Part shown: positions 7,189-54,036 of the stretch, piece after piece
How positions within the stretch are numbered: position 1 is the first letter of the stretch
Layout of the letters: each line of letters starts with the position of its first letter
NCBI RefSeq assembly: GCF_006345805.1
Contig: NC_042998.1
Coordinates: forward strand, 150,598,001-150,662,000
DNA from: Octopus sinensis
Lineage: Eukaryota
DNA: 64,000 nucleotides
Direction of reading: 5' to 3'
Notes under the pieces: generated by a model
Databases searched by the model: none
The model's input: only the letters and a program-made list of their open reading frames with translations
Told to the model about the DNA's origin: nothing
Position numbers and translations under genes: made by a program

Positions 7189-7307
7189 ATATATATATAT
7201 GAAGGTATGTATATTCGCATGATTATATGTATCTATAATTCTATGTATATATGTAAATAAATGTGTGTATATATGTTTCAGTTACGAAAGGAGAGAAAAT
7301 ATTCCAA

Positions 7308-7348
<41 letters not shown>

Positions 7349-7349
7349 C

Positions 7350-9897
7350 ATATGAGGAGGAGGGGGAAGAGGAGACGATGGGGGAGAAGGAAGGTGAGGA
7401 GGGGGATGAAGGAGGAAAGAGGGAGGGGGGAGAGAGAGAAGGGAGAGAGGGAGTGAGGGAGCAGAGGGAAGGGGAAGAGGGAGGGAGAAAGAGGAAGAAG
7501 GGAAGGGGAGTAGGGGTGAAAGGATGAAGGACTGAAGAATAGGGGTCGGGGGGAGAAAGGATAGGTGAGGAGGGGGGTTAGATGAGGAGGGGGGAGAGTT
7601 GAGACCAAATGGCGCGTATAAGAGCGAAGAGAGAAGATTAATTCCTGTTCACGGCGCAAACGGGAATCCGGATGGCCTCTGTGTAAGGACAAACCGAACA
7701 CAGATAGGTGTTGCAAGGAGTGACCGGTGGAGCGGAAATGGCGTGAGACCGGTGTGTCGTTCGCAAGGTGGATGTCACGAAGGTGTTCCGCGAACCGGTC
7801 AGCCAAGCGGCGTCCCGTTTGTCCGATGTACAAGGAATTGCAGAGAGAGCAAGAGATGCAATAGATAATATTGCTGGAGGTGCAGGTGAAGGAGTGGATG
7901 ATGGGATAGGGTCGATGGTGGGTGCTAGTGAGGCGGGTGGTGTTGGAGAGGTAAGGGCAAGTGCGGCAACGTGGGCGGGAGCAGGGGAACGAGCCGGGTT
8001 GGGAGGTAGGGTCAGGGAAGGAGCTATGGACCAAAACGTCTCGAAGGTTGTGGGCTCGTTTGAAAGAGGGAGGGGTCGGTTAGGTTAGTAAGTGAAGTGA
8101 GAGTGGACGGGTCGGACTGGAGATGACGGAAAGCTCGAAGAATGGTGCGTTGGAGACGTAGGGTCGTGGGGTGGTAAGTGAGGGGAAAAGGGAGGCGGGA
8201 GACTACAGGGCGGGTTGGGGAGAGAGAGCAGATACACGGTCCACGGACCGTGCTCTGGCAAGGGCGGTGTGGATAGTGGTGAGGGGTATCCACGTAGGGT
8301 GAAGTGGTGAGCCATACGTTGAGGACTGAGTCTCAAAGTCATGGTCGTCACTACAGAGCCTACGTAGACGGAGGAATGGGAATAGGGGATGGAAAGCTTG
8401 GTGTGTTCTGGGTGGGAGGAAGAGAAGTTGAGGTATGAGTGTGAGTCTGTGTGTTTGTAGTGAATGGAGGTGGTAAGAGTGGAGTGAAGAATGCTAACCG
8501 AAATGTCGAGGAAGGAGACAGAGGTGTTGGAGATAGTGGAAGTGAAGTGGAGGGCTGGATGGAAAGATTGGACGAAAGAGAGGAAGGAATCTAGATGTTC
8601 GCGGGAGAGTGAGGTGGCACCGATAATGTCGTCAATATAACGACCATATAGTTCAGGGTGGGACCAGTGAAATTAGAGAATATTTGGGCCTCAACATAGC
8701 CAACGAACAGGTTCGCATAGTTGGGGCCCATTCGCGTTCCCATGGCCACTCCCGAGACCTGATGGTAGAACTCGCCCGCGAACGAGAAGCAGTTCAGAGT
8801 AAGGACGAGTTCGGCCAGACGAATGAGTGTGGAGGTGTCAGGTACAGGGTTAGAGCGGAGGTCAAGAAAGTGTCGAAGGGCCTGCAGTCCTTCGTGGTGA
8901 GGGATAACAGTTATAGAGGCTTTGGATGTCCATAGTAAAAAGGATTTTGGAGGAGCCGGGAGGAAAGGAGAAAGAGTTGAAAAGCCGGAGAGCATGGTTG
9001 GTATCGTGGATGTGGGAGGGAGAGAGATGCCACTAGGGGGGCAAGGACACGGTCGAGGTATTTAGAGATGAGCTCCGTGGGGCAGTTACAGGCAGAGACG
9101 ATGGGGCGGCCAGGGTTGTTGGGTTTGTGGATTTTGGGGAGGAAGTAAATGGTGGGGGTGGGGGGTACGTGGGGTTCGCACAATTAGGTTGGATGCGGTG
9201 CGGGGGAGACGGGAGGACGAGATGAGGTCTTGGACAGTAGAGGATACCGTCTGTTGGTAGCTACGTGTGGGGTTAGAGGGCAGAGGGGAATAGAAGGAGG
9301 TTGTCATTGAGTTGGCGGAAAGCCTCGGCCCTATAGAGGTCCGCGCGCCACACCACTACAGCTCCACCCTTGTCAGCCGGTTTGATGATAATGTCAGCGC
9401 GCCGTTGGAGGGAACGAAGAGCCAAGAGCTCAGCCGGGGAGATGTTGAGGCGGCGTTGGCGCCTGGAGAAGTTGAACCGCTCCAATGCACGCTGACAAGC
9501 GCCCGCGAAAAGATCCACTGCTAGGATCTGGCCAGGGGCAGGCGTCCACGGGGATGGTCGGCGGCCCAGGCCAGTGAAGCAGTCGTCCTCTTCGTGGGGG
9601 TGGGTGGCGAGTCGTGGTAATGCGCACCCAACCGGACACGGCGCACAAAGCTGTGGACATCAACTCGCGTCTGGAATTCCTTACAGGATGGAGTGGGGGG
9701 ATGAAACGCAGACCCCTACCAAGGACGGAGCGTTCAGCCGCAGAGAGGGGAAGATCGGGGGGAATGGTAACAACAGACGGAAGTGGAGAAGGGGTGGGTG
9801 GAAATAGAAGTAGGAGGGGTGGTAGGTCTCGTGGAGGTCTGAGGGGGAGGGATTGGGGGGGGGGGTGGGGGGTTGTTGGGCGGGGCAGTAGGGTTAG
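7350..9897 (-). mobile_element. Neptune-type Penelope-like retroelement (RT + GIY-YIG endonuclease), frameshifted, near full-length ORF
   Basis: Motifs [52 protein letters not shown] (8628-8639), Cys linker CSRPRCRTC and NIIYCISCSLCNSLYIGQTGRRLADRFAEH. Flanked by (TA)n on both sides. Confidence 0.95.
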
Positions 9898-10564
9898 ATA
9901 TATATATATATGGTCTGAATCTTAATTATCGTGGTTATTAGATCAGTAGCCTGCTTATTTGGGTAACGGTGTACACTGTAGGAATACAAATAAATATGTC
10001 TATTTCATCACCCATTCACAAGATAAAATGAAATAATCTCATTTTGATTTTTGCCTTTCGGTAGTTCGAGATTTCCTGATGAAATGGCAGGCAATTCTAG
10101 CGTATATGATAATAATGATGTAATATTGTAGGCTACTATGCTGCTGAGACATTTGTAGCATGTATTGAACAGTCATTGTATATTTATTTTAATTTGTTGC
10201 GTATGTGTGTGTAACTGTGTCTATGCGTATACAAAGAGCCGCAAGCAGAGAAAGAGATTGAAATGAAGAGAGAGAAAAAGAAAAGTAAATACAGGTAGAG
10301 TCTAAATTTATTGAAATCATTTTTGCTTCTCGTGGATATGTCCCAGTTAATGAGTGGCAAGTGAGTCTCGCTTTTTCTCAGAGAGCTGTCATGTTGTACT
10401 TACAACCTAGAAGTTTGCATGAACAAGATCATCTTCGTATTGTGTTATCAGATCACGAAACTTAGAGTAGCTCACATATAAATCCCATGTGTGCAAATGA
10501 CAAGTATCTCTCGTTGAATAGAGTACCTCTTGGTTGATCCCACCGATAATGGAAGGTTACTCTG

Positions 10565-10685: not shown

Positions 10686-10689
10686 TATA

Positions 10690-11035
10690 CTAGCAGTATC
10701 GCCCGGCGTTGCTCAGGTTTGTAAGGGAAATAACTATAAAGCATTTTTAGAGAGTTATAGCCAAAAAATAGCAAAAAAATGGAAAAAAATGATTGTAAAA
10801 GTTTTTTTGAGAGTAAAAAATGGTGGAGTTGCGTCCCTTAGACAGTTTGCGGTTTGTGTTTCTGATTCTCGACCCCATGTCGAATTTATCGATTTTTTTC
10901 AGAACTGGGGGAACTTTTCAAAATTTTCGCTGCGTTAGTTTTGAATTATGACATTGGGCTATGTGTGTGTCAAGTTTCAGGGTGAGGGTACAAGCAAACA
11001 GACACACAGAAACACGCACAGACAAACTGCCGTTT

Positions 11036-12804: not shown

Positions 12805-14072
12805 CGAGGGGCGTTCAATAAGTAATGCCCCTGACCCACTTCCCATGGCAGTAGAGCAACGAAACTTGGCACAGTTATTAGTCTTTTTTTTACATAGGAA
12901 CCACTCAGAGTAACGCATTTCTCCCATCGTTTGATGCATCTCTGGAGATGGTTTTTGTAGAAGACCCCAGTTTGGTCCTCCAACCACGACGTGACTTCAG
13001 AAATCAAGGCTGCATCATCTGGGAAACGATTTCCTTTCAAAAACAACTTCATGGCTGGGAAGAGGTGAAAATCAGAGGGTGCAAGGTCAGGAGAGTAGGG
13101 GGGATGGGGAGGAGTTCATAGCCGCATGCCTGTGCTTCTGATCTGGCGACACGCGAATTGTGGACCGGAGCGTTGTCTTGCAGGAGGAGGATGCTTTGCT
13201 AATCTTGCCCCGCCTCTTGATTTTGATCGCTTCTCTTAATTTCTTCAAAAGTGAAGCATAATAGGCTCCTGTAATCCAGGAAATCTGTCATCACTACTCC
13301 GTCCTGGTCCCAGAAGACTGTGAGCATGACCTTGCCAGCGGAGGGCTGCACCCTTGCCTTCTTTGGAGGAGGTGAGTCACGGTGCTTCCACTGCATTGAC
13401 TGGGCTTTGGTCTCTGGATCATAGTGATGGACCCAGGTTTCATCCTGTGTAATCAGTCTTCTGAAAAATTTTGACTCATCTTCTTGGCACATCTCCAAAT
13501 TCATCCTCGAGCACTCGACGCGTTCTTGCTTCTGGAAAGGTGTGAGCAACCTGGGAATCCATCTGGCAGACACCTTTTGCATATGCAAATGGTCATGAAT
13601 GATAGTTTCCAAAGACCCGGTACTAATCTTGACCCCATGGGCTATTTGGCGGATAGTTATGCGTCGATTTTCCAAAATGGCAGCCTCAACTTGACGGACA
13701 GATGCTTCATCAATGGCAGAAGGGGGCGACCAGATCTGGGAGCTGTTTCCACAGAGTTCCGACCATGTTTGAATTCACGATGCCAGCGTTTTACAAGGTC
13801 ATATGATGGGGCATCATCACCATAAGTTACTTTCATTTCATCAAAAGTCTCCCGTGGTGTGCGTACTTTCAAATACAAAAACCGGATCACTGCTCGACAC
13901 TCAACTGGCTCCATTTCACACTTGACTCTGTTCAAACACCTGTAAATCAGAAACCACAGAGCTGTAATTTGCCACTTAATCTATAGAGATATAAATAATT
14001 GCACATGCAAAATTTCAGCTAGATCAAACAATTGCAAGTGGGTTAGGAGCATTACTTATTGAACGTCCCTCG
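12805..14072 (-). mobile_element. Full-length mariner (DD34D) DNA transposon, inactive
   Basis: 37-bp TIRs (12805-12841 and 14036-14072, 3 mismatches) and TA TSD (12803-12804, 14073-14074). Transposase motifs WIPRLL, ITQDETW, QDNAPVH and YSPDLAPSDFHLF are spread over several frames. Confidence 0.95.
12880..13914 (-). pseudogene. Mariner transposase, frameshifted
   Basis: ORF pieces 13657-13935, 13199-13675 and 12594-13052 join into a mariner transposase with HTH and DD34D domains. Confidence 0.9.
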
Positions 14073-14699: not shown

Positions 14700-15970
14700 G
14701 GATGAAACCAAGAAAGTTCTCGGGAATTCACAATAAGGTCCTGTAAAGAAAACAAGAAATCAAGGGTCACTACTCTTGGATGACACCTGTTGAGTGATTC
14801 TCTCTCTTGGGTTTGACTTTTTGGGTTAAAATCTGCTGGATGAGGAATTTGTTCCCATTATGTTATTTTATATTCTGGGTATGTCTAATGTTCGTATGAT
14901 TGTGTGTTAAGGGATTTCATCAGTGGACGTGTCTTCTATGTGTGGAGATCGTTTGTGGTATATACTCAATGTTCACGTTCAGGGAAAGAAACTATTCTGG
15001 TGGGATCGACGGAGTAGGTGGTGGTTCCTCTTTGAAATGCTGTAGTGTAAAATATTGCTTGTGTATGCAGAGAGTGGTTTCATCCCTGATGTTTATGATA
15101 TTATCTTTTGACAATATGATGTTTAGCTTTTTAGTAATACAAAGCTCGCATTTGGTGCCCTATCCCCTGTATTTTCTGACTTTAGTAATAAAGCTCCATG
15201 TTATCTGGGAATTGCTTACTCTTCATTCTTTCAATATTCATATCATATTGAATAGCGATGTCACATGTCTTTATTTTTGTTCCTGAATGACGCCAGATGT
15301 TGTGTGTATCTTCCCTTGAACGAGTTGCCCGTCATCCCGATATATGTCTTTGCTACTCCGATTTTGGTTTTGTTTATAAGTTCTTTTCCCAGACAGCCGT
15401 AAATCCATATTAGATAATATCATATGATATATCAGAGCATATTCAAACTTTACTCAATGGATATGTATTACTGAAATTATTGAATGGTTTAAGAAAATAG
15501 AAGATAAACCCAAATGCAAATTTATCCAATTTGACATCGTTGAGTTTTACCCCTCGATCTCCAAAAACTTGCTTCAAAAAGCACTTGAATTTGGTAAGGC
15601 ATATGTTACCATAACAAACGTTGATATAAATATAATTATGAACGCAAGGAAGTCGTTACTTTTTCCTAATAGTTCCTACTGGGTAAAAAAGAATGAGAAT
15701 AAGCTATTTCATGTGGCAACCGGGAACTATAATGGTGCAGAGATAGCTGACCTAGTTATCCTTAGAAAAGAAATAAAAGAAGCCAATATGGATTTATATA
15801 AGAACGATAGCCTGGAAGTGGTATACAATAAAAACGGACACGATATGGATAGGATACGGGGAAAATTATGCAAAAGATTTAACCAATTAGGTCGAAGAAC
15901 ACAATTAATACCAACGTGATAGAAGTCAATTTTCTAGAAATGAACATGAAAATAAGAACAGGTAAATTTA
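14700..15970. mobile_element. Penelope-like element with inverted 5' RT segment
   Basis: Minus strand ~15400-15050: KTYIGMTGNSFKGRYTQHLASFRNK...KCELCITKKL...CIHK (GIY-YIG). Plus strand ~15410-15970: FIQFDIVEFYPSIS, VATGNYNGAEIADLV, LYKND (RT). Confidence 0.8.
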
Positions 15971-19885: not shown

Positions 19886-21815
19886 ACCACACTAACTTTG
19901 AACAGTGACAATGAATCTCTAAATGCTGGTGATGTAAAAATTCATGTGGCATTTTCCTCTCTCAAAACTGCTCAATGATGCGCAGTACGGATATAAAATG
20001 TTTGATAAAAATATAAATCATCTCATTTACATGGATGATTTAAAGCTCTTTGCAAAAAATGACCAACAACTCAAGGGCTTACTAGCGATTGTCAAACAAT
20101 TCAGTGATGACATCAGAATGCAATTTGGCCTCGATAAATGCGCAAAAGCTACCTTTATCAAAGGAAAAATGACAGAAACATCTAATGTTAACCTTGACCA
20201 GCAGAATGTCATAAAAGAATTAGACCCAGCAGAGAACTACAAGTATCTAGGGATAATTGAAGGAGAAGGAATAAGGCATTCAGAGATGAAGGAAAGGATC
20301 AGGAGAGAATGCTATCGCAGAGTAAGAGCAATACTCAAGACAGAGCTGAATGCGAGAAACAGGATCGAAGCGATCAATGCATTAGCCATACCAGTCGTGA
20401 CTTACAGTTTCAGTATCGTTAACTGGTCAATCACTGAAATATGTAATCTTGACAGAAAAATACGAAAACTGTTGACAATGCATAGAATGCACCACCCTAA
20501 GGCAGATACAGAACGACTTTATCTGCCAAGAAAAGAGGGAGGCCGTGGACTTTTACAACTGGCAATAACAATGAAGATTGCTACAATTGGCCTAGACACC
20601 TACCTGAAAAACTCTGAGGACTGGATGTTAAAACTTGTCTCAAAACATGAAAACAAGAAAGCATCATACTCAGTAACAAAACAAGCAAAGGAATATCTAA
20701 GTGAATTCCGAATACAACAAATTTCGGAATTAGAGATAGACATACAAGAAACAGGCACAGAAAAAGCTAGGCGCATGAAAACCCGTGCTAAATCTGCGGC
20801 CTTAGATATTCTGAATGATAAATGGCAAGAAAAACCTCTCTATGGCAAATACCCAAAGAGAGCAAATAATGCAGATGTTGACAAAGCCCTGACCCATCAA
20901 TGGCTAATGGCCTCTGGCTTAAAATCTGAAACAGAGGGGTTTATCATAGCAGCTCAAGATCAATGCCTACCAACAAGAAACTACCAGGCCAACATATTAA
21001 AGATCAGAAGCAGTCCAACGTGTCGTATATGCAAGCAACAAAATGAAACCATTGACCATGTGGTCTCCAAGTGCAGTCTTCTAGCGCCTACAGAATATCT
21101 CAACAGGCACGATAGAGCTGCACAATATATTCACTGGGTAATCTGTAAAAACCTGGATTTGCCCCATGAAAAAAACTGGTGGGAACACAAACCACCCCCA
21201 GTGCTTGAAAATGACCACATTTCACTCCTCTGGAACTTCGCCATTCAAACTGACAGAAAGATAGATGCAAATAGGCCAAGACATCATATTGAAAGACTTC
21301 AAACAAAGAACATGCCTCCTCATTGATATGACTGTCCCAATCGATATAAACGTATCTGTCAAGACCTACCAAAAACTGAGCAAATATAAAGATCTTGAAA
21401 TAGAAATCAGCAAAATGTGGAAGCTGAAGACTAAAACAATACCTGTTGTCATAGGTGCCCTGGGAATGATAGCAAAAGGGGCAGATAGCTACGTAACTCA
21501 GATACCAGGAAACCCAAAAATGGCAGAAATTCAAAAGATAGTGCTCATGGGAACTGCTCATATCCTACGCAAAATACTTTCTATGTAATCTCAAGGTTTA
21601 AAACAAACATAAGTTTCGGTTTAAAAAAAAAAAAAAAAAATTTTTTTTTAGACATTCATTAGTACAACACCCCACCCCCCAAATATATGGCACACCAGGC
21701 ATAACAACAACATGAACTTCCAACCCTGTTGTCTCTTGAGGTCTCTGGGTGAGACTTGGAGCCAACTTGTACAAATATAAAGCAAAAGTCAAACATAGAA
21801 TAATAATAATAATAA
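19886..21815 (+). mobile_element. R4/Dong-type non-LTR retrotransposon (RT + CCHC + RLE), 5'-truncated
   Basis: YMDD (20028-20039), YKYLG, RLYLPRKEGGRGL, CRICKQQNETIDHVVSKC zinc knuckle, NRP/DI..LIDMTVP..K..KY.DL RLE domain. One frameshift near 21275. 3'UTR ends in (TAA)n and the 5' end abuts (TAA)n. Confidence 0.95.
19944..21588 (+). pseudogene. R4/Dong RT-RLE ORF remnant (460 aa + 107 aa)
   Basis: ORFs 19944-21326 and 21265-21588. The RT QGD motif is deleted at the 5' end (CGIF is joined directly to PLSKLL). Confidence 0.9.
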
Positions 21816-21819
21816 TTGC

Positions 21820-22340
21820 TGTTACAGGTAGTAGCATCATGGCCTCTGATTTTAACTGATTGGATGTGTTATCATGTACATGTTTTGTCTTGGTATAAAA
21901 GATAGATTACAGCAAATATTTTGCTCATTACCACAGATGTGTTTGTCAGTTGTTTGACTGTAACCAGTTGAACATGTCCCTTAATGGCTGACGATATGAG
22001 CACCTCTGATCACATGCAGAAGTAGTTGGGGAGTATCATAGCCAAGTGTTGAGAGCAAATCTGTTGGGTATTTCAGGTCCGGAAACATTGATGTTTCGTT
22101 CAACATCATTAAACAACCCTTATTCAGGGACCTTTTGAGCGGGATGGGCTACTCAATCTGAAGAAAATTCTAACTGGGCCCCACCTGCAAGGTCATATAC
22201 TGTTTATTTTGATATGAGATCACCATTATCGCGCACACATAGTTGTGATGCATGTGACAGTTAGTAATGATGGATATATTGGGCTTCGTATAGTTGTATC
22301 TCAGTGACACTTTGATGGTATGCGCTGCTCTCTCACTCAA
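21820..22340 (+). repeat. Second copy of the ~550-bp (TAA)n-tailed repeat
   Basis: Inverted homolog of 16219-16775, followed by a long (AAT)n. Confidence 0.75.
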
Positions 22341-24741: not shown

Positions 24742-25146
24742 CAATAATAATATGTACATATATGTGTGTGCTTGTGTATTATTGTGTCTGGGGAGAGTCA
24801 TTCACTTTTAGTGCGTTATTACTTAACACACACACCGGTTCGATTTCCACTCATTTACTTATTTGCTTTTTCTAAAATTGTCATTGCGTCTTGCAACCTT
24901 TTCAGTAGTCGTTCACTCTCAACGACTATTGAAAAGGTTACAAGACGCAACGAAAATTTTAGAAAAAATAAAGAAGTAAATGATTGGAAATCGAACAGGT
25001 GTGTGTGTTAAATAATAAGACACTAAAAGAGAATGACTCTCTCCAGACACAATAAAATATGCTTCAACACACGAATTCAATTCACATTAATCTTGCATTA
25101 ATCTTGCAAACCAAATACAATAAGGAAATATATATTTATATATATT

Positions 25147-25648: not shown

Positions 25649-28270
25649 TATATATCATATATACGTATAGATACATACACATATAAACACACATATACAT
25701 ACACAGGCACACATGCACACATATATAAATACACATGCATATACATACAGGAACACTTACATACATAGATGCATATACATATTTGGAAAGCGAAGTTGTG
25801 AAGGGAACGCAGTCATTTAAAAATGCCGTTGAGAAAACAGTCGTCATGGGACGAGGGAAGAAGAGAAGGTATCGAGGAAGAAAGAGGGAACGAAAGAACG
25901 AAAATTAAAGGAGAGAGAGAGGTACGAGCAAACAGAGAATAGATGATAGATAGAAAGAAAGATAAAGGGGAGAACAGAGAGTATGGGAAGTAAGAATAAA
26001 GAATAGATAAGTTGCAAAAATGATTATTAGGTGAGGGTAGATATTTAAGAAAGGCAAAACAGCGTTTTTTTCCAATGCAAACACCTGTAAATACGTTCAT
26101 TAAAAGTGTTTACCAGTTTATGCTTAGAAAAGAGAATAGGTAGTTGTTCGTCCGTACAAAGAGGACAGAAAGATTTCCCTTTATCATGTGGAAATAATCT
26201 TGATAAAATTTTCCAGAAAAACGTTTATTAGAGTCTTTAAGGTGCCAAATTAGCTTACTAAGTCCTGTAAAATTACGCATATGACTGCATTTAAAAGTGA
26301 AAACATAGTTCTTGATACGGCTTTTCAACTCCGTAGACAATCCAATATAAAAGAATTCTGTAGATCCAGAGGTAATTTTGCATTGGTAAACAACATTTTT
26401 AATACTGCAATTGAGGACGCAAGTTTTATTCGAGCCACAGTTACAAAGACTAATATCATTGATATTATTATTCAAGGAGAGATTATAGTTAATATTATTA
26501 ATGTTATTACAGTTATTAAGAAATACTCTATTACCTTTGAGAATATAGTTGTTATGCAAGGATATAATCTGCAGGAGGTTGCTGGTGCTGGAGAAGCAAA
26601 TTCTGATAGGGTGGGTGTTGTAAATTGAGTGGTAACTGGAATTTATGGGAAATTTCTTTCGATAGCTTTATGAAATGGGCGGGCAAAGTTACTTTTAACT
26701 TGTTTTCCGCATGGAACAATCAACTAGATATTTTTACCAGGGTTACGCGATTTATGGAAAAATTTATTATTAAAAAACTTAATGTCTTTTTTAAAGAACG
26801 GAAAAAAAGAGTGGGGAATGATAGTTACGTCCCTTTGACTATTTGTTTTTAAAATTCCGATGGTAACGACTAAGGCTGTTATGATGTAATGGGATATTAT
26901 TCGGATTATTGTCTACGAGAGGAACGATGTGCGTATTTTTGTTGTCATTTTGTCTGTTACTATTAATATTATTACTACTATTATTGTTAGTAGTATTATT
27001 ACTGTTATGATTAGAGGAAGAGTTAAGGACAAGATGGTTATAATACTTAATTTATTTCTTATATCCTGTTTTATATAACGCTGAATTATAGAAATCAGAG
27101 TTATTATTGAAAATGGTTTCATTGGCAGATGATTTAGAGATTCAAAGCGATATGTTTTTAACTAATTTGTTTGTTATATTGGTAGGGTGATACCTAAAAA
27201 GGCTGATGTATTTCAGGTTAGTTGAAGGTTTATGATATGGGAAATATGAGGCCGTATTTAAGTTGAGAGTAAGATCAAGGAAGTTAACCTTAGTTCTATC
27301 ATCATTCTATCTTAGTTCTATAATCATATGGGCCTAATACTTAGGCCCATATTACTAAAGAATTTGACAATTTTGCGTTTAACCTTTTAACGTTTTTGAT
27401 TAGAGATATTTTGGAGGTAAAGGGAAAAGTCGTCGCGATATAAACTACCGAGTATATATAGAAATTGGCTATCCATTTCTGATAAAATATAAATACCTAC
27501 CAAATCAGCTATTTGTGCGGAATCGCTACAACCCATAGGGATATCAAAGCAGTAGGGTCGATCTTTATGAAGCCAAAATTTGTTATCAAGTTGGATAATA
27601 GATTTTTTAGTTGCTATAACAACATTAATTTCATCCCGGGTGAGGCTGGCTTTATTATGCGTGAACCATAGGGCTTTATTAAGGTTGATGTGATTGATAG
27701 AGGAATAATAACTATAGATATTGAACTGAATAAATTTAGTGTTTAGTTTATTATCGATAGAGTTGTGAACCAGTCCACAACCTGGAACGAGTTAAACCAT
27801 AAATTAAGTTTAAGTATTTTCGTTAACGAAGGAATGTACTTATCAAGAATATTTTTGCTAAGTATACCGATATCCGAGCTGGAGGGGCAGATAAGACGGA
27901 GAGTTGGATTATTGAAGAAGCTAGGTTTGTGATCCGTTAAGACAAAATGGAGTTGCTTTGGAGATAAAGGCTCAGTTTTCATTTGCAAGTTATATTTTTC
28001 CATAATTTTCTCAGCTTCTAGGTTAGCCTTTCTGATAGCATTTTTACTAGTAGCCATGTATATTTTTTGTATTTCCTTCCTGAGTAGCTTTAAGTAAGAA
28101 TCTGTGTTTAAATGATACAGGTTACCAGTTTTATCCGATTGAACAAGGATGCCTTCCATGCTGTTTATTTCTTTGGTAATATTACGTAGATATCTCAGAT
28201 ATCTATTTCTTAAGGGTGAACGATGGAATTTAACATTCTTAACAATAAACGGGAGGTCCTCTTCAAACTG
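25390..28270 (-). mobile_element. Penelope-like element (YRDD RT, CxCx5C linker, GIY-YIG), degenerate
   Basis: SDKTGNLY, DHKPSFFNNPTLRLICP, FDIPMGCSDSAQIADLVGIYIL, YRDD (27429-27440), CNCGSNKTC, VVYQCKI..FFYIGLS. A decayed HHR lies in the 3' pLTR at ~25448-25537. Confidence 0.9.
25448..25537 (-). ncRNA. Decayed hammerhead motif in PLE pLTR
   Basis: CUGAUAA (C3.A8 mismatch), long helix II (GAUGCAUU/AAUGCAUC), GAAAC-AUAA-GUC. Helix I is broken. Homologous to 41475-41560. Confidence 0.55.
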
Positions 28271-28462
28271 TGCACACACACACAAATATTTTAGAATGGT
28301 AATTTTTATTTCCAAATTAATCACAATGCACTATGCACTCGTTCTTCATTATTCTTCTTCTTCTTAATTATTCTTCTTAGTTTAGTGTCCTTTGTTTGAG
28401 ATCTTTCATCCCACATCCTATGATTTCTTTAGCGACTCTTCATTCCACGTGTCTTGTTTTCT

Positions 28463-29360: not shown

Positions 29361-29427
29361 AACACTTATGAGAACGGAACCAAGGGATAAGCTCCGGTTT
29401 CCAGCGAATCACCCGGTACGCTAGCTA

Positions 29428-29461
<34 letters not shown>

Positions 29462-29528
29462 TAGCTAGCGTACCGGGTGATTCGCTGGAAACCGGAGCTT
29501 ATCCCTTGGTTCCGTTCTCATAAGTGTT
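29361..29528. repeat. Perfect 168-bp palindrome (68-bp arms around (TA)16)
   Basis: 29361-29428 is the exact reverse complement of 29461-29528. Confidence 0.95.
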
Positions 29529-32145: not shown

Positions 32146-33110
32146 TTATCGAATGAACTTCAGGGATTCAATGACAAAAGTCTGGTTTATGCGGTCCGAG
32201 AGACCTTCAGGATATTTTTCTAACCAGAATTTTATTGCCCCTATTCTGTATTCATATGGAATGCTAGTGTAGAGGTTGATGACATCGAAGGAGACGAATA
32301 GAGCTTGTTCATCCAACAACCAAATTGCAACTGACATTAACTGCAAACCAACAGACTCAAAACAGTATCTCCTTTTCAGTTTATGCCATCCTAAACACAC
32401 CAAAATAAATATTCCGTTCACTCTAGTAAAAAGGATCTGTACAATTGTATCTGACACAACCACTCAGGAACTTCGCCTACAAGACCTCAAAATAACACTT
32501 ATTGAACGTCAGTACCGACCTATACTTATAGAAATTGGACACAAACACACTAAGGACAACAAAACAAAACACCACACCTCACCTTAAACCAGAAACACCA
32601 GAAACAATGAAGCATATAGCACAATTATACAAAATCTCCCTCTGCTCACTCAAGACCCGAAAATGAACAGCATCCTAAATACACACAAACTACTAAAATG
32701 CAAAAGACAAGACAAATCACTCGAGAGATTCATAACAAATGCAAAACAATACCCAATACATACGATACCAACAGTTAAAAAATGCAGACGACCTAACTGT
32801 GGTACGTGCCCACACCTAACTTCACATGTGCTTCCCAGAACCTTACCTATGTCCCAGCATGCTCAGGTTGTGGTCACAATTATCTGGGCCAAACGAGCCT
32901 TACTTTGAGACGCAGAATCAGCTGCATAAAGAACAAATTCGTCTTCCTTAATAGAGGCAGATAGCACTGAGCTGACATATCAACAGATGCGCAAGTAATA
33001 AAACGCCGAATTTTCATATCTTCCCATTATACCAATGCAAAAATTCAGTACAAAAATCTCAGAACAAAAACGCATAAACAAGGAAATCCCTATCTTAAAA
33101 GGTGTGGTTA
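32146..33110. mobile_element. Neptune-type PLE fragment with inverted 5' RT piece
   Basis: Minus 32146-~32300: VSFDVINLYTSIP...LKFI (RT3). Plus ~32310-33110: TDINCKPTDSKQYL..CHPKHTKINIP, KKCRRPNCGTCPHL, CSGCGHNYLGQT. Confidence 0.85.
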
Positions 33111-33709: not shown

Positions 33710-34580
33710 TATGGTCGGTTGAGCTGAAAATATGCACACCTATGTTAAAAGTGCTGGCGAGTTTGTATGGCAACTATTTTTTTCCTCAAATGAAAGGTGT
33801 GACCTCTAGGACAAAATTCCTCATCTTATAAAATGTGACCCGAGTAGACCCGAATGAAATCGGGTTATATTAAGCAAAATGTGAAGAGGGGTCTCAATGG
33901 GGCTGGAAGGGGATTAAAATTTACAGGAGCGGGTGTTTAGGAATTCTCTATTACAACAAGCTAAAAAATTTGCGCCAGCCTTTAAATCTTCAATGCGTTG
34001 CTGTCCATCATGAAGAAGTTTTGAATGCTTGCCATGGTGAGTCTACTGTCGTGAGAAAGAATCACCTCAAAACTTGGTGTTTAGGAATTGTCTTTTACAT
34101 CAAGTTCAAAATTTTGCACCAGCCGTTAAACTGCCACTACGTTGTTGTCCGTCGTTAAGAAATGCCAGCCATGGTGACTCTACTATCCTCAGATTCTATC
34201 CCTTCAAACTTTGGTTTCCAATATTTTTTTATTTTTATTCAGCTCGCAAGTTCGTCTGTCCCTTTTAAATGTTAGTGTTTTGCTGTCTGCCTTGAAGCAG
34301 ACCTTTCCATTGTCACTACCTGATATTTATGATTGATCTTTCAAAATATTTCCTTTCTCAACTTACTCAAGATCTTTTTGTTGTTTATAATGGGAGATAT
34401 ATAGATAGAGAAAGATAGAGAGTAAGAGAAAACGAAGGATAGCTCCTATAGAAAGGAAGAGTAAGAGATGTGAATGTTAGAGAGAAGGAGAGAGAAACAA
34501 AGAGGGGAGATGTGGTGATAAAAAACAGAAAGTACAACCACACTCTTACCCCGCGCGTAGAGCGGGTCACCTTAAGCTAG
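33710..34580 (+). mobile_element. Non-autonomous Helitron-like element
   Basis: 3' hairpin CCCGC-gcgtaga-GCGGG (34550-34566) lies ~10 nt before CTAG-t (34577-34580). Internal ~145-bp degenerate direct repeat (33933-34050 / 34077-34185). TA-tract flanks. Confidence 0.65.
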
Positions 34581-34598
34581 TATCATATATATATAATA

Positions 34599-35786: not shown

Positions 35787-35985
35787 ACACACACACACAT
35801 ATGTATATATATAACATAAGAGGGATCAGCCATCTGAATGTGGCTAGGGTCAGGGCGGGGTGGTGGGGGTGTTACTGATGCATTTAGCCCAGGCCGAACA
35901 TCGACGTCACCAGAAGAGCTGACACCATCTCGGTGTCCTTGCCAGCCAGCAAAGGAGATCAGCCTCCCCGAAGATACGGATACTA

Positions 35986-36028
35986 CACACGGACCGGTTT
36001 CGAGGTTATTGCCTCTTGTCAACGTATG
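35986..36028 (-). ncRNA. Minimal type I hammerhead ribozyme, U3-A8 core variant (copy 1)
   Basis: CAUACG UUGACAA GAGG-caauaa-CCUC GAAA CCGG UC/ CGUGUG: 6-bp helix I (one G-U), perfect 4-bp helix II, palindromic CCGG replacing helix III, GUC cleavage site. Confidence 0.8.
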
Positions 36029-36343
36029 GTAAGCACCGCTCTTCGTTGAGGGACTTCCTCTACCGGCTGGATATATATAGATTTTCACAGTAAACAGTCA
36101 CTGGCGTAGAAAATCTGTTCGAAAACAATAATAAATCTCTGGGCGAGATATAAACAGTAACTGCTCTATAACATAAGAGGGATCAGCCATCTGAATGTGG
36201 CTAGGTCAGGGCGGGGTGGTAGGGGGTGTTACTGATGCATTTAGCCCCAGGCGAACATCGACGTCACCAGAAGAGCTGACACCATCTCGGTGTCCTTGCC
36301 AGCCAGCAAAGGGAGATCAGCCTCCCCGAAGATACGGATACTA

Positions 36344-36386
36344 CACACGGACCGGTTTCGAGGTTATTGCATCTTGTCAACGTATG
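36344..36386 (-). ncRNA. Minimal type I hammerhead ribozyme, U3-A8 core variant (copy 2)
   Basis: Same as copy 1 except helix II 5' arm GAUG (one mismatch). Confidence 0.75.
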
Positions 36387-36460
36387 GTAAGCAACCGCTC
36401 TTCGTTGAGGGACTTCCTCGCCCCAGATTTATTATTATATATATATTATATATATATATA

Positions 36461-38828: not shown

Positions 38829-39911
38829 TGTGTGTGTGTGCGCGCGCGCGTGTATGCATCAATGTACGTATGTATGCATGCATGTGTACACACGCACATA
38901 TTTATATACATGCATATATGTTTGTTGTGTGTGTGTGTGTATGTGTGTATGTGTGTGTGTGTGCGTGCGTGTGTGTGTATTTATATATATATATATATAT
39001 ATATATGGAGTTAAACACAGGTGATATTCAAATCTTTTAACTTCCGAAATATGGTTCAAAGAAAACATTGGTATTATTCCAGAAGAAATATAATTGTGTA
39101 AAACAATGCAATCTTTCAGTAATCACTCAAAGAATTTAGTTAGGAATATTTCACTTAGACTTTCTTGATTATCTGCTAATCAACGATAAAACTGAATGTT
39201 ATAACTCTGCCTTTTTTAAAACAGGCTATAAAGAAAAAATTACCTATATTAACTCTATTGACATTAATTCTACCTCTTATTAATCAGGACATGAAATTAA
39301 GTTATAACGATATTAACAATTTCAATTTTATTTCGAATAACAACACCAAATCGAGTAATGTAATTCTGCAGCGTAATTATTTAAGACCCCTTTTTTTTTT
39401 AATTATAAAGGTACATCGAGGACTATTAAGGATAAGTACTCTAATAACAAGGTATGTCCTAGCAAAACTGTTTGGTTAATAATTCAATATGGTAAGCAGA
39501 TCAAATCCAACCTCCCTTGCCAGTTTCGTGAAGCTATAGAAAAGAATTTCCCAAGAAATTCAAGATACTATTCGGTTATTAATTCACACCGAATTAGGAT
39601 AGGTTTTTCTAACAAAAAGAATCTTTCACAAATCATCTCTTCGCATAATAAGTTGTTAAATACAAATCCACTCAATGAAAATAGTAACATTGATATTGTT
39701 AACACTAACTATTATTTAAATAAGAATAGTAGTCGTCTTAGTGTTTATGATGTTGATTCCAATCACATTCGTTTCTTTAGCAGTAATTCTAAGATAGAAA
39801 CTCTATTTATCAATGTAAAATTACTTCTAGTACTTCATCTCAGTTGTCCAAAAGAATATCTAATCTTTACTCTACATTTAGACATATCAATAAACGTAAC
39901 AATACTGGGAT

Positions 39912-40957
39912 TTTTAAAATTTTATTTTATTTATTTTATTTTATCTAGTTTCAGCTCACGAGCTGTGGCCATGCTGGGGCACCGCCATTCGGTGTTGCTA
40001 CATGATTTTACTTCACGAATGCTTTTTAGCAATTGCCATTTGGTGCATGAGAGAGTTCGATGCAGCTGCCCTCATCTGCACCTCCTGCCGTGAAGTTGGT
40101 GCATCTGGGACACCTGACAGGAAGAGATCCAGTTTTATTTTAAAGACATCTGCATCCACCCCATGCAGGTCTCTCAGGTCCTTCGGGAGGATATTGAAGA
40201 GCTGTGAACCTCTGAAGCCCAGGCTATCACAGTATCTTGTCCTACATCTTGATGGCAAATTTGGAGTCCTTGGCACTATGCAGTGGCACCCAGTTCTAGT
40301 ATTTGTGTAACTCTCGATGCCAAAGTTTGGGACAAGTCCTTCCAGGATCTTCCAGATATATATTATGGCATATCTTTCTCGCCTACGCTCCAAGGAATAG
40401 AGTCTTAATCTCTTGAGTCTTTCCCAATAGCATATATGCTGCACAGAGGCTATCTTCGTGTAGCTTCGTTGGATCGCCTCAAGTTCTGTGATTAACTTGA
40501 CACTGGATGGTGACCATAGCTGAGAGCAATAGTCAAAGTGGCTTAGGACAAGTGTCCTCCAGAGGACCATCATGGTTTCCTGGTCTCTTGTTCTAAAGGT
40601 TCTAAGAATCCATCCGGTCAGCCGCCTACATTTCATTGCCAATTTAGCAACATGCACATGAAAGGTTGCATCATTACTTATGTAAATACCCAGGTCACGC
40701 ACTGATTGTGCCTCTGGGATTGCAATCCCTCCAGGTCCAGTGTATTTATTGGGCATTGCATTTAGTTTTGCATGCTGATAGCATAAAGCTTGAAACTTGC
40801 TATTCTTTTCAGCCCACTTGTATATTTTGTCCAGCTCACATTGCAGGTGCATAGTGTCTTCAGGGTTCTGTATTGCCTGTGAAACTTTTGTATCATCTGC
40901 ATTACCTGGGATCGTTGCTCTCTGCGTGGCTGAGGGCATGTCTGAAAGGGCCATAAT
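39912..40957 (-). mobile_element. CR1-group LINE, 5'-truncated (RT C-terminus, 3'UTR, (TAAAA)n tail)
   Basis: 313-aa ORF 40013-40954 with ADDTK, RDLGI, DYCSQLWSP, LEAIQRSYTK, LYSLERRRER. The TTTTA repeat at ~39920-39945 is the tail. Confidence 0.85.
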
Positions 40958-41474
40958 TGGTAAATTAATTTGATATATAAAGGATCATAATAAACAATTT
41001 GATTTGGAATGGAATATTTTATCTATATCTTTTCTGTATGATGAAGGTAAATCTTTTTGTTCGCTTTGTAACAGTAAAATGTACTTTATCATGTTCTCAG
41101 GGAATCCCTTTGCAAACACGTTTATAGAACGCGTTTATAGTTGCAAACATTGGCAGAAACATACCTTTGGTTCCTATGAGTGATTTCTACCATTCTATAA
41201 AATTCGACATTTTACTGTCTTCTTACATTTCACTTCCACTAAATATATCTACTTCCAAGCCTTTAAGCATTATTCCTATTCACCTATCACTCTCTATCTC
41301 TTCACTATTAGTTTTCTGATAATTTCTTCCTTTCTCCTCTTTCTCTTCCTATAAACTACCTTTGACGTTTTATCTAATAACAGTTTTTTTTTAAACTTGC
41401 TAGCGTTCCCTTCATCATATACGCAGTCATCACATTCTGTAAAAATGTCTTATTGATGTGTTTGGTTACTTTCT

Positions 41475-47709: not shown

Positions 47710-47757
47710 TCTCCTCTGAGGAGCGGCTAACTAACCAGAAAACGGTCCCTCAGGAGA
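47710..47757 (+). ncRNA. Degenerate hammerhead-like motif
   Basis: UCUCCU CUGAGGA ...GAAA...UC/ AGGAGA: 6-bp helix I and canonical CUGAGGA, but helices II and III are eroded. Confidence 0.45.
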
Positions 47758-47867
47758 CACCTTTTTCTGCACATCAAATGCACATAAGGATATTTTTACA
47801 TTATTATAGTTTCTCATCACAACTAGGCCTGTAAATGTTTGAATATATTTTATTCTTTCTGGTTCAT

Positions 47868-48689: not shown

Positions 48690-49314
48690 CACAATATGTC
48701 AAGTGCTACTAATAATTACATATGTTGGGAAATGTCTCAGCATTGAACAGAACAGTTGAATGTGTGTGTGTGTACGCGCGTAGGTATGTAAGTATACATA
48801 CATACACACAATTTAAATAAAAATTAACCAATGGAATAACACAGTGATATGAATTGGTCCCTTTTTAAGCTTTGGCCGAACAAGACCATGGAATACTATT
48901 TTGTTTGTCGTGTCCAGTAATGTAATTTGAGAAGACTAACATTAATCCAAAGAACTGGTCATCACACCAATACAAGTTACTGGTCATTCCAATGCTACAA
49001 GCGAAGGCTCTAAACCAAGGTATTCGTAATCCCTTGTTTACAGTAAAAAAAAAACTCTTTTTCGAAAACTTGGTAATTATGATACATCCTTTAGAGGTGG
49101 AGACAAAGCCTATATTGCTCTCTCTCTCTGTTTTTGTGTTCGTATGTATAAATATATAGGCGTAGGAGTGGCTGTGTGGTAAGTAGCTTGCTTATCAACC
49201 ACATGGTTCCGGGTTCAGTCGCGTGTCTTCTACTATAGCCTCGGGCCGACCAAACCTTTGTGAGTGGATTTGGTCGAAGGAAACTGAAAGAAACCCATCG
49301 TATATATGTATATG

Positions 49315-49398
<84 letters not shown>

Positions 49399-49399
49399 A

Positions 49400-50168
49400 T
49401 AATAAAAGGGTAAATAATTTTTTTTCGATGGTTTTTTAGACAACCAACAATTATTTACCGGTAAATTTCGGTATGTAAATATGACTTTTAGCGTCGGGAA
49501 CTTCTGTAGAGTTCAGTATATATAGTAGTATATAAGTAAAAGGGCAGGCAACAGGTTGCTCTGCCGCATACCGAAAGAATTAGAAATGGCAGTCAGAGAC
49601 TGTTTAATTCCATTTTCTACAAGTGGAGGCTCCATATACGACATAACCCTGCGATTCACATACGCAAAATCGGAGTAGCAAATAAAGGAAAACAATCTCT
49701 TACCGTTAATGGTGAACATGTTTCTAGATCGTAGGCGAGAAATTGCCTAAAGTCTTTCGTCAGCACCATCTTCGTTAGATTTATCAAATGCCACTAGCCT
49801 CCACCTCTGATCAGGCGTCATCAGATAGTGGGGGGGGGGAGTGTGCATAGGTTAAAACTAAGTAAACGACTGAGACCGTCAATTTTCCCTCCAAAAATTC
49901 TGCCATGCGCACCACCGGGATAGTCGTAATGGAGTAAAAATCCAATTGGTAATATAATAAAAGGGTAAATAATTTTTTGGGATGGTTTTTTAGACAACCA
50001 ACAATTATTTACCGGTAAATTTCCGTACTCCGATTTCGCGTATGTGAATTGCAGGGTTATGTCGTATATGGAGCCCCCACTTGTAGAAAATGGAATTAAA
50101 CAGTCTCTGACTGCTAATTCTTTCGGTATGCGGCAGAAACTGTTGCCTGCCCTTTTACTATATACTAC
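49400..50168 (-). mobile_element. Non-coding HHR element with direct and inverted repeats (PLE pLTR-like / retrozyme-like)
   Basis: Direct repeat 49401-49470 / 49956-50023 (~555-bp period). Inverted repeat 49523-49677 / 50025-50168. HHR at 49709-49769. Confidence 0.75.
49709..49769 (-). ncRNA. Minimal type I hammerhead ribozyme (CAUG palindrome, GUU site)
   Basis: AUGGUG CUGACGA aAGA..UAGGC-loop-GCCUA..UCUa GAAA CAUG UU/ CACCAU. Perfect 6-bp helix I. Confidence 0.75.
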
Positions 50169-50199
50169 AATATATATATATTATATATATTATATATAT

Positions 50200-50244
<45 letters not shown>

Positions 50245-50555
50245 GTGGTGTGTGTGATATGTGTGTGTGTGGCGTGTGTGTGTGTGTGTGTGTATGTTTG
50301 CGTGTCTGTGTTTGTCCTCCCAACATCGCTTGACAACCGATGCTGGTGTCCCCGTAGCTTAGCGGTTCGGCAAAGGAGCCCGATAGAATAAGTACTAGGC
50401 TTACAAAGAATAAGTCCTGTGGTTGATTTGCTTGACTAAAGGCGGTGCTCCAGCATGGCCACAGTCAAATGACTGAAACAAGTAAAAGAGTAAAGACAGA
50501 TAGATAGGTAGATAGATAGATATCTGTGCATGTATGTGTGTGGGTATATGTGCGT

Positions 50556-50865: not shown

Positions 50866-51012
50866 ACGACGCACTTCTTTCAGTTTCCGCCTTCCAAATC
50901 CACTTTGGTCGGTCCGAGGCTATACAATTCACTTACCTAAGGTGTAACTTAGTGGGACTGAACCCGGAACCATGTGGTTGGGAAGCAAACTTCTTATCAC
51001 ACAACGACGCCT
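50690..51012 (-). mobile_element. CORE-type SINE
   Basis: Reverse complement of head (GGGACTGAACCCGGAACCATGTGGTTGGGAAGCAA) and tail (GCTGAACCGCTAA.GTTACGGGGA). Confidence 0.8.
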
Positions 51013-53604: not shown

Positions 53605-54036
53605 ATTACATATATATACACTGAAAAATGTATGTAGAGAAATATNNNNNNNNNNNNNNNNNNNNNNNNNNNNNNNNNNNNNNNNNNNNNNNNNNNNNNN
53701 NNNNNNNNNNNNNNNNNNNNNNNNNNNNNNNNNNNNNNNNNNNNNGTTATTAATGTCTTTGTCATATCTGTTATTCCTATTGTTGTTGTTGTTGCTGTCC
53801 ATATTATTATTATTATTATTATTGCTATTGTTGTTATTGATGCCTATGATATGGTTCTGCTTCTTTTTTTTTCTTGTTGATCATTTTGTTCTTGTTACTG
53901 CTCTTCTTATTTCCCTTCCTATTTTTATTATTGTTATTATTATCAATATTGTTATGTTGTTGTTGTTACTGTCGTTAATTTAATTTTTGATGTTGTTTGA
54001 GGTTTTGGCTGTTATGATTCTTTGTTTATGATTATT

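Follow-up and report, generated by a model that had tools for sequence, protein, structure and literature searches.

Animal non-LTR retrozymes are short elements, with units of 51–972 bp and less than 50% GC, that carry type I hammerhead ribozymes, form self-paired folds and encode neither reverse transcriptase (RT) nor endonuclease (PMC7229834; bioRxiv 10.64898/2026.07.22.740005). Their status as non-autonomous PLE derivatives has already been proposed, and in the available portions of these sources the retrozyme–PLE link so far consists of co-occurrence and pLTR similarity. Non-autonomous PLEs have been described in algae (PMC8557442), where Chlamys elements such as MRC1 are short PLE derivatives that form pLTRs and target microsatellites. 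Endonuclease-bearing PLEs have as standard traits inverted truncated copies and one-sided tails of 30–40 bp (PMC3846280, PMC8557442), and in experiments with a purified PLE protein both strands of an AT-rich target were nicked and extended, with cDNA begun at two internal sites that bound the genomic tail (PMC11167929).

The window analysed here, a whole 64-kb stretch of octopus DNA, consists of AT-rich animal sequence with many microsatellites and the decayed remains of mobile elements. It holds an element that resembles the retrozymes in its short unit (554 bp, 38% GC), type I hammerhead, self-paired predicted fold and absence of RT and endonuclease, and that resembles the pLTRs and tails of endonuclease-bearing PLEs (PMC3846280, PMC8557442, PMC11167929) in its inverted 5′-truncated copy, an extension on one side only, a joint with microhomology, a direct repeat that opens with a palindrome, an AT-rich (TA)n target and an ATG in the hammerhead upstream of the cut. 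With the Chlamys elements it has in common small size, pLTR-like structure and a microsatellite target; those belong to green algae, mostly lack canonical hammerheads according to the available part of PMC8557442 and form multi-copy families, whereas this element is known from one copy. We favour, with moderate confidence, the reading that PLE enzymes inserted a non-autonomous PLE derivative of about 554 nt that belongs to the animal non-LTR retrozyme type.

The element occupies 780 bp (49397–50176) and lies inside a host repeat, whose (TA)n tract it interrupts. Its order on the minus strand is inverted B′, A1, U, hammerhead, 30 nt, B, x and A2, an arrangement that the initial annotation had recognized and whose limits are refined here. 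B (49517–49677, minus strand) is the direct copy and B′ (50026–50176, plus strand) its inverted, 5′-truncated counterpart; 152 of 157 aligned columns are identical, leaving 5 substitutions, to which 11 gap columns are added. The direct pair consists of A1 (49952–50027, minus strand), a 76-bp repeat, and A2 (49397–49473, minus strand), the 3′ end of the direct part, which has a 14-bp palindrome at its start (49453–49466); the two agree in 73 of 76 aligned columns, with 3 substitutions and 1 gap, and B′ and the start of A1 overlap by 2 nt (TA). From start to start A1 lies 554 bp upstream of A2, in agreement with the period of ~555 bp annotated earlier, a value that derives from a single 76-bp repeat in one copy. 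Between the repeats, U is a single-copy segment of 181 nt (49771–49951, minus strand), and x is a 43-nt stretch with short hairpins (49474–49516, minus strand) that together with A2 forms an extension of about 120 nt, the ‘tail’, on only one arm of the inverted pair.

In all, the locus contains 1.14 periods and one hammerhead and is no tandem array, unlike active retrozymes, for which the available source text takes hammerheads in at least two consecutive units as the criterion; monomers are nevertheless common in retrozyme families. The period also exceeds the 170–400 nt of the retrozyme circles shown by northern blot, and the inverted 5′ piece, the tail and the (TA)n target are undescribed for retrozymes in the accessible parts of those papers. 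We detected no second copy within the 64-kb window, none in bacterial or archaeal genomes by exact 26-mer search (protein patterns confirmed 0 of 518 candidate stretches) and none among phages or plasmids.

The host repeat is abundant and two-part, contains a (TA)n/(TG)n tract whose length varies greatly, and is the landing pad for both hammerhead elements of the window, the second of which (35810–36440, minus strand; hereafter the 35811 element) also lies in (TA)n and ends its direct part at a motif similar to the one described below. We take the host repeat to resemble a SINE. Its left half at the present locus (49130–49305, plus strand) is similar to 10 other places in the window at 69–85% identity and its right half (50290–50500, plus strand) to 9 others at 68–85%. 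The two halves are paired in eight places, a count that leaves out five further half copies; in six of the eight they are separated by just 18–197 bp of simple sequence, and the remaining two hold, within (TA)n, this element and the 35811 element. The flanks align in register with the uninterrupted copies, which are paralogous and not an allelic empty site. The element is an insertion. Tandem Repeats Finder places the unstranded target tract at 49301–49401 on the left, where it overlaps the element by a few TA bases, and 50170–50244 on the right; because (TA)n runs on from both element ends, a target-site duplication is unreadable, a limit of (TA)n targets also noted in PMC8557442.

The hammerhead lies at 49770–49708 on the minus strand and was assigned to type I, PLE-type variant, by descriptor and by comparison with 56 motifs in the available part of the PMC4209133 supplement, counted by eye. 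It has the CUGACGA and GAAA boxes, a GUU triplet of the NUH kind, an ACAUGU palindrome (positions 15.2–16.2) and a closing helix I of 7 bp, made up of six Watson–Crick pairs and one G-U, with the cut predicted between 49715 and 49714. The boxes, the 6-bp helix I, the CAUG palindrome, the GUU site and a cleavage position near 49714 had all been annotated and hold; the description of the core as canonical does not, since an unpaired A flanks helix II on both sides and the G10.1–C11.1 pair that closes helix II on the core in the canonical type I form is absent. Helix II is itself interrupted, with 3 + 5 bp around an internal loop. Among the PLE-type motifs an extra base after CUGANGA is the consensus, and 24 of 56 have U at position 17, so that GUU is no sign of decay; G10.1 is missing from 5 of 56, and in 1 of 56 an additional A stands in front of GAAA, which makes the helix II junction rare but with precedent. 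The element thus has in common with the palindromic PLE hammerheads of Drosophila, rotifer, shrimp and mosquito the extra base, the long interrupted helix II, U at position 17 and a 6-nt helix III palindrome, a short palindromic helix III being the mark of this described variant (PMC4209133), whereas its helix II is closed by A-U rather than G-C, it has the extra A before GAAA and its 7-bp helix I is longer than in the motifs listed there. From retrozyme hammerheads it differs in being a PLE-type variant and not a canonical motif.

Taking a descriptor match with helix I of at least 6 bp plus the palindrome as the criterion, such a motif arose once when the element was dinucleotide-shuffled 5,000 times and once among 150 shuffles of the whole window. 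Rfam returned no match anywhere in the window at the gathering score and no hammerhead in the element at E values up to 10, and the A-flanked helix II broadens hammerhead descriptors to motifs of a kind that Rfam misses; one Rfam miRNA match (E = 4.9) is at chance level. In isolation the lowest-energy fold pairs the hammerhead core (−14.3 versus −1.4 kcal/mol for the open-core fold), and the computed palindrome duplex of −7.8 kcal/mol would permit a dimer, a form proposed for hammerheads of this class (8 of 9 predicted Xenopus dimers did not cleave; bioRxiv 10.64898/2026.07.22.740005). By descriptor there is no hammerhead on the opposite strand of the element. A second CTGATGA at 49824 sits in a plain hairpin with no GAAA partner and was rejected as a ribozyme, as were hammerhead-like matches at 21988, 41479 and 47716, in which helix II or the palindrome is missing; the hairpin at 47710–47760 (plus strand), which spans the last of these positions and has CTGAGGA, GAAA and a 6-bp closing helix but no helix II or palindrome, is probably a chance match.

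Both outer ends of the element stop just past CCCTTTTA and then TA-rich sequence. In A2 this motif lies at 49410–49403 (minus strand) and continues into (TA)n; B ends in a second copy (49544–49537, minus strand) followed by a TA-rich run borne by the template, and the corresponding motif at the outer end of B′ (50150–50157) again leads into (TA)n. The two template sites, 49544 and 49410, are 134 nt apart, and twin CCCTTTTA-(TA) ends at this spacing are what two internal starts of reverse transcription would be expected to leave. The 8-mer itself is present anywhere in 833 of 20,000 shuffled units. Of a looser form, CCCT[CT]TTA, the window has 10 occurrences, 6 inside the two hammerhead elements. 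This form stands directly before 4 of 130 (TA)n edges, and 3 of these 4 are ends of those elements; it was derived from these very ends after the fact, so its counts are descriptive.

Together, the partial tandem, the inverted 5′-truncated piece, an extension at one end only, the AT-rich (TA)n target and the PLE-type hammerhead make insertion by PLE machinery, the architecture that the initial annotation had advanced, well supported. Compared with published PLE pLTRs and tails, in the portions available, the element has no RT or GIY-YIG ORF between its repeats, its extension of about 120 nt is 3–4 times the published 30–40 bp, its two start sites have one common motif, and its inverted piece and the adjoining direct repeat are without sequence overlap. 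It is also no autonomous PLE, with 780 bp in total and no telomerase-like RT or GIY-YIG ORF. We found no RT or endonuclease in the element, none of its six frames nor either of two further frames matching any Pfam family, and within the window no sequence link to PLE ORFs; three end or B motifs were absent from the accessible part of the PMC8557442 supplement.

On the favoured reading, the endonuclease and RT of a helper PLE would have placed the unit into the (TA)n of the host repeat, with a more-than-unit or circular RNA as the presumed template and a target presumably nicked on both strands. The first nick would prime cDNA at the downstream CCCTTTTA-(TA) site and copy 631 nt (one unit plus A1), the second would prime at the upstream site and copy about 151 nt (B′), and the two cDNAs would join head to head over 2 nt of microhomology, leaving the 120 nt between the start sites as the one-sided tail of x and A2. 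Cleavage by the hammerhead would require two copies to dimerize through the palindrome, and this locus, with one hammerhead, is probably an inactive end product. A Neptune/Nematis-type PLE is the likeliest helper; the (TA)n bias has been tied to PLE clades with a CX2-5CxxC linker (PMC8557442). The window contains a broken PLE at 7282–9921 (minus strand), of Neptune/Nematis type by motif. Its frames are RT-like and include a CxxxxCxxC linker and a weak GIY-YIG match (E = 0.002), its 3′ stretch is pyrimidine-rich, and (TA)n tracts flank it left and right; it has no hammerhead by descriptor and no sequence in common with the element.

Folding of the 554-nt unit gave z = −4.4, with 0 of 100 shuffles as low, and as a circle the modelled RNA is 64% paired, retrozyme circles being typically self-paired. 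In the predicted structure 49948–49861, within U, pairs with 49703–49620 (minus strand) into a rod with the hammerhead at its tip, 51 of 66 pairs having a calculated probability above 0.8; the 5′ arm begins at the A1–U junction, and U contains a side hairpin besides. On a 90 × 90 grid the best duplex scored −64.7 against −39.4 ± 4.3 in shuffles (0 of 400 as good), while the antisense strand on the same grid reached −39.3, with 188 of 400 shuffles as good. These predictions indicate a strand-specific rod in which the ribozyme is flanked by two paired arms of about 90 nt. The high self-pairing expected of retrozyme RNA is thus found in the circle fold and is weaker in two broader comparisons: a duplex of whole U with the whole 3′ part was matched by 148 of 300 shuffles, and among 80 control tiles 4 lay as far under the folding energies of their own shuffles as the focal 340 nt (80 of 151 tiles, up to position 51001, after removal of simple-repeat, N and element tiles; each tile folded on one strand against 12 shuffles). 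A stable fold is also predicted for the antisense unit (z = −2.7). A G-U bias of 10:0, 10:0 and 5:0 in three alignment settings disappeared (10:9) under the loosest of the four, and base composition alone predicts a share of 0.67.

The element had been called non-coding, a label that is in doubt, as a long frame on the hammerhead strand is nearly open. It runs from helix II to the right end (49399–49746, minus strand; 77 codons, one TGA, 38 codons), and its first ATG, at 49719–49717, lies within helix III, 5′ of the predicted cut. A second open frame of 68 codons (49824–50027, minus strand) crosses the A1–U junction and reads A in the same frame. Round the unit up to 159 codons are read with one stop, a length attained in 38 of 5,000 shuffles on the A1 circle and making the label ‘ORF-less’ doubtful, against 137 of 5,000 on the A2 circle and 900 of 5,000 for the stop-free run; on contiguous DNA, reading from the hammerhead as far as the right end gives 116 codons interrupted by one stop, which 33 of 4,000 shuffles equalled, and the whole linear direct part was equalled by 286 of 4,000. 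The frame criterion was chosen after inspection of the data, and the statistic weakens with the choice of scope. Such a frame is a further departure from the retrozymes as they appear in the available sources. The translations have no relatives among Pfam or PDB sequences and none in a 90% protein cluster set (0 of 141, 0 of 3 and 0 of 14 candidates); one match to a 735-aa protein in a representative search, six short stretches at 33% identity, was read as repeat-summed noise. We regard the frame as suggestive only; nothing speaks for reading its single TGA as selenocysteine. An intron after the hammerhead was rejected, the single donor-like site (49703) being at about chance level and absent at that place in the 35811 element.

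The plain reading of this frame, and the simplest, is a decayed 5′ end of the parent PLE ORF, because in an anole PLE the start codon likewise sits within the hammerhead, upstream of the cut (PMC11167929). Much the same evidence bears on a different account of the locus, which we judge possible though rather unlikely: that an autonomous PLE left ordinary truncated ends here, in the form of short cDNAs of 555, 76 and 151 nt joined at one site, so that the 554-bp period would be a mere truncation length, U–hammerhead–B a pLTR and the helix III frame a real ORF start. According to the sources as far as available, most PLE insertions are 5′-truncated and most PLE hammerheads are single; pLTRs include the first ORF codons (PMC11167929, PMC3846280). 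The 116-codon frame fits this account, as do the lengths of the two internal B/B′ indels, 6 nt and 3 nt (the TA-rich end holds another, of 1 nt), and the silence of 2 of the 3 upstream substitutions, and all end signatures fit it equally well. It demands, however, a third cDNA that ends exactly at the start site, and it leaves aside that the 68-codon frame runs from A1 into U and that the rod arm begins at the same junction. The translations, moreover, resemble no PLE or other protein, although PLE N-termini are poorly conserved, and from the 35811 element it is clear that this genome does contain short tandem units. Because a stand-alone 554-nt unit requires A1–U to be a junction in the template, a single copy cannot prove it; the frame across A1–U, the rod arm starting there and the parallel with the 35811 element lead us to lean towards a template junction. 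Of the annotated ORF-less element mobilized in trans, then, the stand-alone unit is favoured and the absence of an ORF is the doubtful part.

A stronger form of the stand-alone reading, that a rod-folded circular 554-nt RNA spread by PLE enzymes is a protein-coding retrozyme with a frame of about 150 codons, strikes us as improbable. Were it true, with the AUG in helix III, cleavage would split the start codon from its frame, only the uncut or re-ligated circle would be translatable, the twin end motif would be the family’s cis signal for PLE reverse transcription, and the element would link genome-borne retrozymes with coding viroid-like circles. Zeta-type circles of that kind, as described in the available sources, carry a ribozyme on each strand and a frame that runs right round without a stop, whereas the element has its ribozyme on one strand only and stops in every frame round the circle.

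Very unlikely in our estimation is a MITE or other DNA transposon with terminal inverted repeats of 150–160 bp (B′/B, 49517–50176) inserted at TA, in which the hammerhead-like motif would be a passenger. The arms are 97% identical over aligned columns, both end TA-rich, and long perfect inverted repeats exist elsewhere in the window. Yet x and A2, about 120 bp, lie outside the B arm and are left unexplained, so that the terminal inverted repeats are not at both outer ends; A2 repeats an internal segment and is absent from the uninterrupted host-repeat copies; the rod pairs U with half of B, which makes B part of the RNA fold; and the same end motif closes both A2 and the unrelated 35811 element. 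That the locus merely reflects rearrangement or misassembly of AT-rich DNA full of repeats, with a hammerhead-like motif arisen by chance, a view to which the long (TA)n tracts bounding the region and the lack of an Rfam match or of a second copy in 64 kb might lend themselves, is hardly credible given a chance level of 1 in 5,000 for the motif, B and A copies that diverge (5 substitutions and 11 gap columns, and 3 and 1) unlike collapsed or doubled reads, and host-repeat halves in register around the element.

For the non-autonomous PLE derivative that we favour, what is new here is the twin CCCTTTTA-(TA) ends, the strand-specific rod and the frame whose ATG lies in helix III. The presence in a single window of two short hammerhead units, unrelated to each other and each with marks of PLE insertion, namely the inverted 5′ piece, two end sites and (TA)n target, would be structural evidence of PLE mobilization, and the repeated end motif is a precise candidate for a reverse-transcription start signal. 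We found no report on octopus hammerhead retrozymes or on inverted retrozyme ends in the literature covered, which excluded most subscription papers, and the family may already be catalogued in repeat libraries. Most likely the element adds one more case to a known class of small passenger elements, from which it departs in a few details; as it stands, it is a single, probably dead copy of a known kind.

The absence of sequence kinship with the 35811 element, noted in the initial annotation, is confirmed: the best local score of 21 was equalled in 75 of 200 and 92 of 200 shuffles on the two strands. The 35811 element nevertheless has a matching layout: it comprises 1.7 units with a period of 358 bp and two hammerheads with a U3–A8 core, and its unit forms a rod around its hammerhead (z = −3.75). 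Its 5′ piece of about 20 nt is inverted from a site about 40 nt further on and was missed by the inverted-repeat search. One period has a long nearly open frame (27 of 4,000 shuffles), the other does not stand out (2,330 of 4,000).

Elsewhere in the window, broken frames at 15428–15919, 26110–28330, 32146–32908 and 39377–40093 are by eye presumably PLE remnants, though none had a Pfam match; a further RT-like frame at 40013–40984 likewise had none. Remnants of a Mariner-type transposase (13199–13980) and of a non-LTR RT with zf-RVT (19938–21588) are also present, as is an assembly gap, a run of 100 N at about 53645–53745, 3.5 kb from the element. A perfect 65-nt inverted repeat (29380–29509) is centred on (TA)n, each arm ending in CTAG before the TA run, and similar hairpin-plus-CTAG ends lie beside (TA)n at 34556–34585 and about 10689–10720; we assume these to be Helitron-like. 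A second long inverted repeat, of 135 nt (24779–25055), is 90% complementary with a 7-nt spacer.
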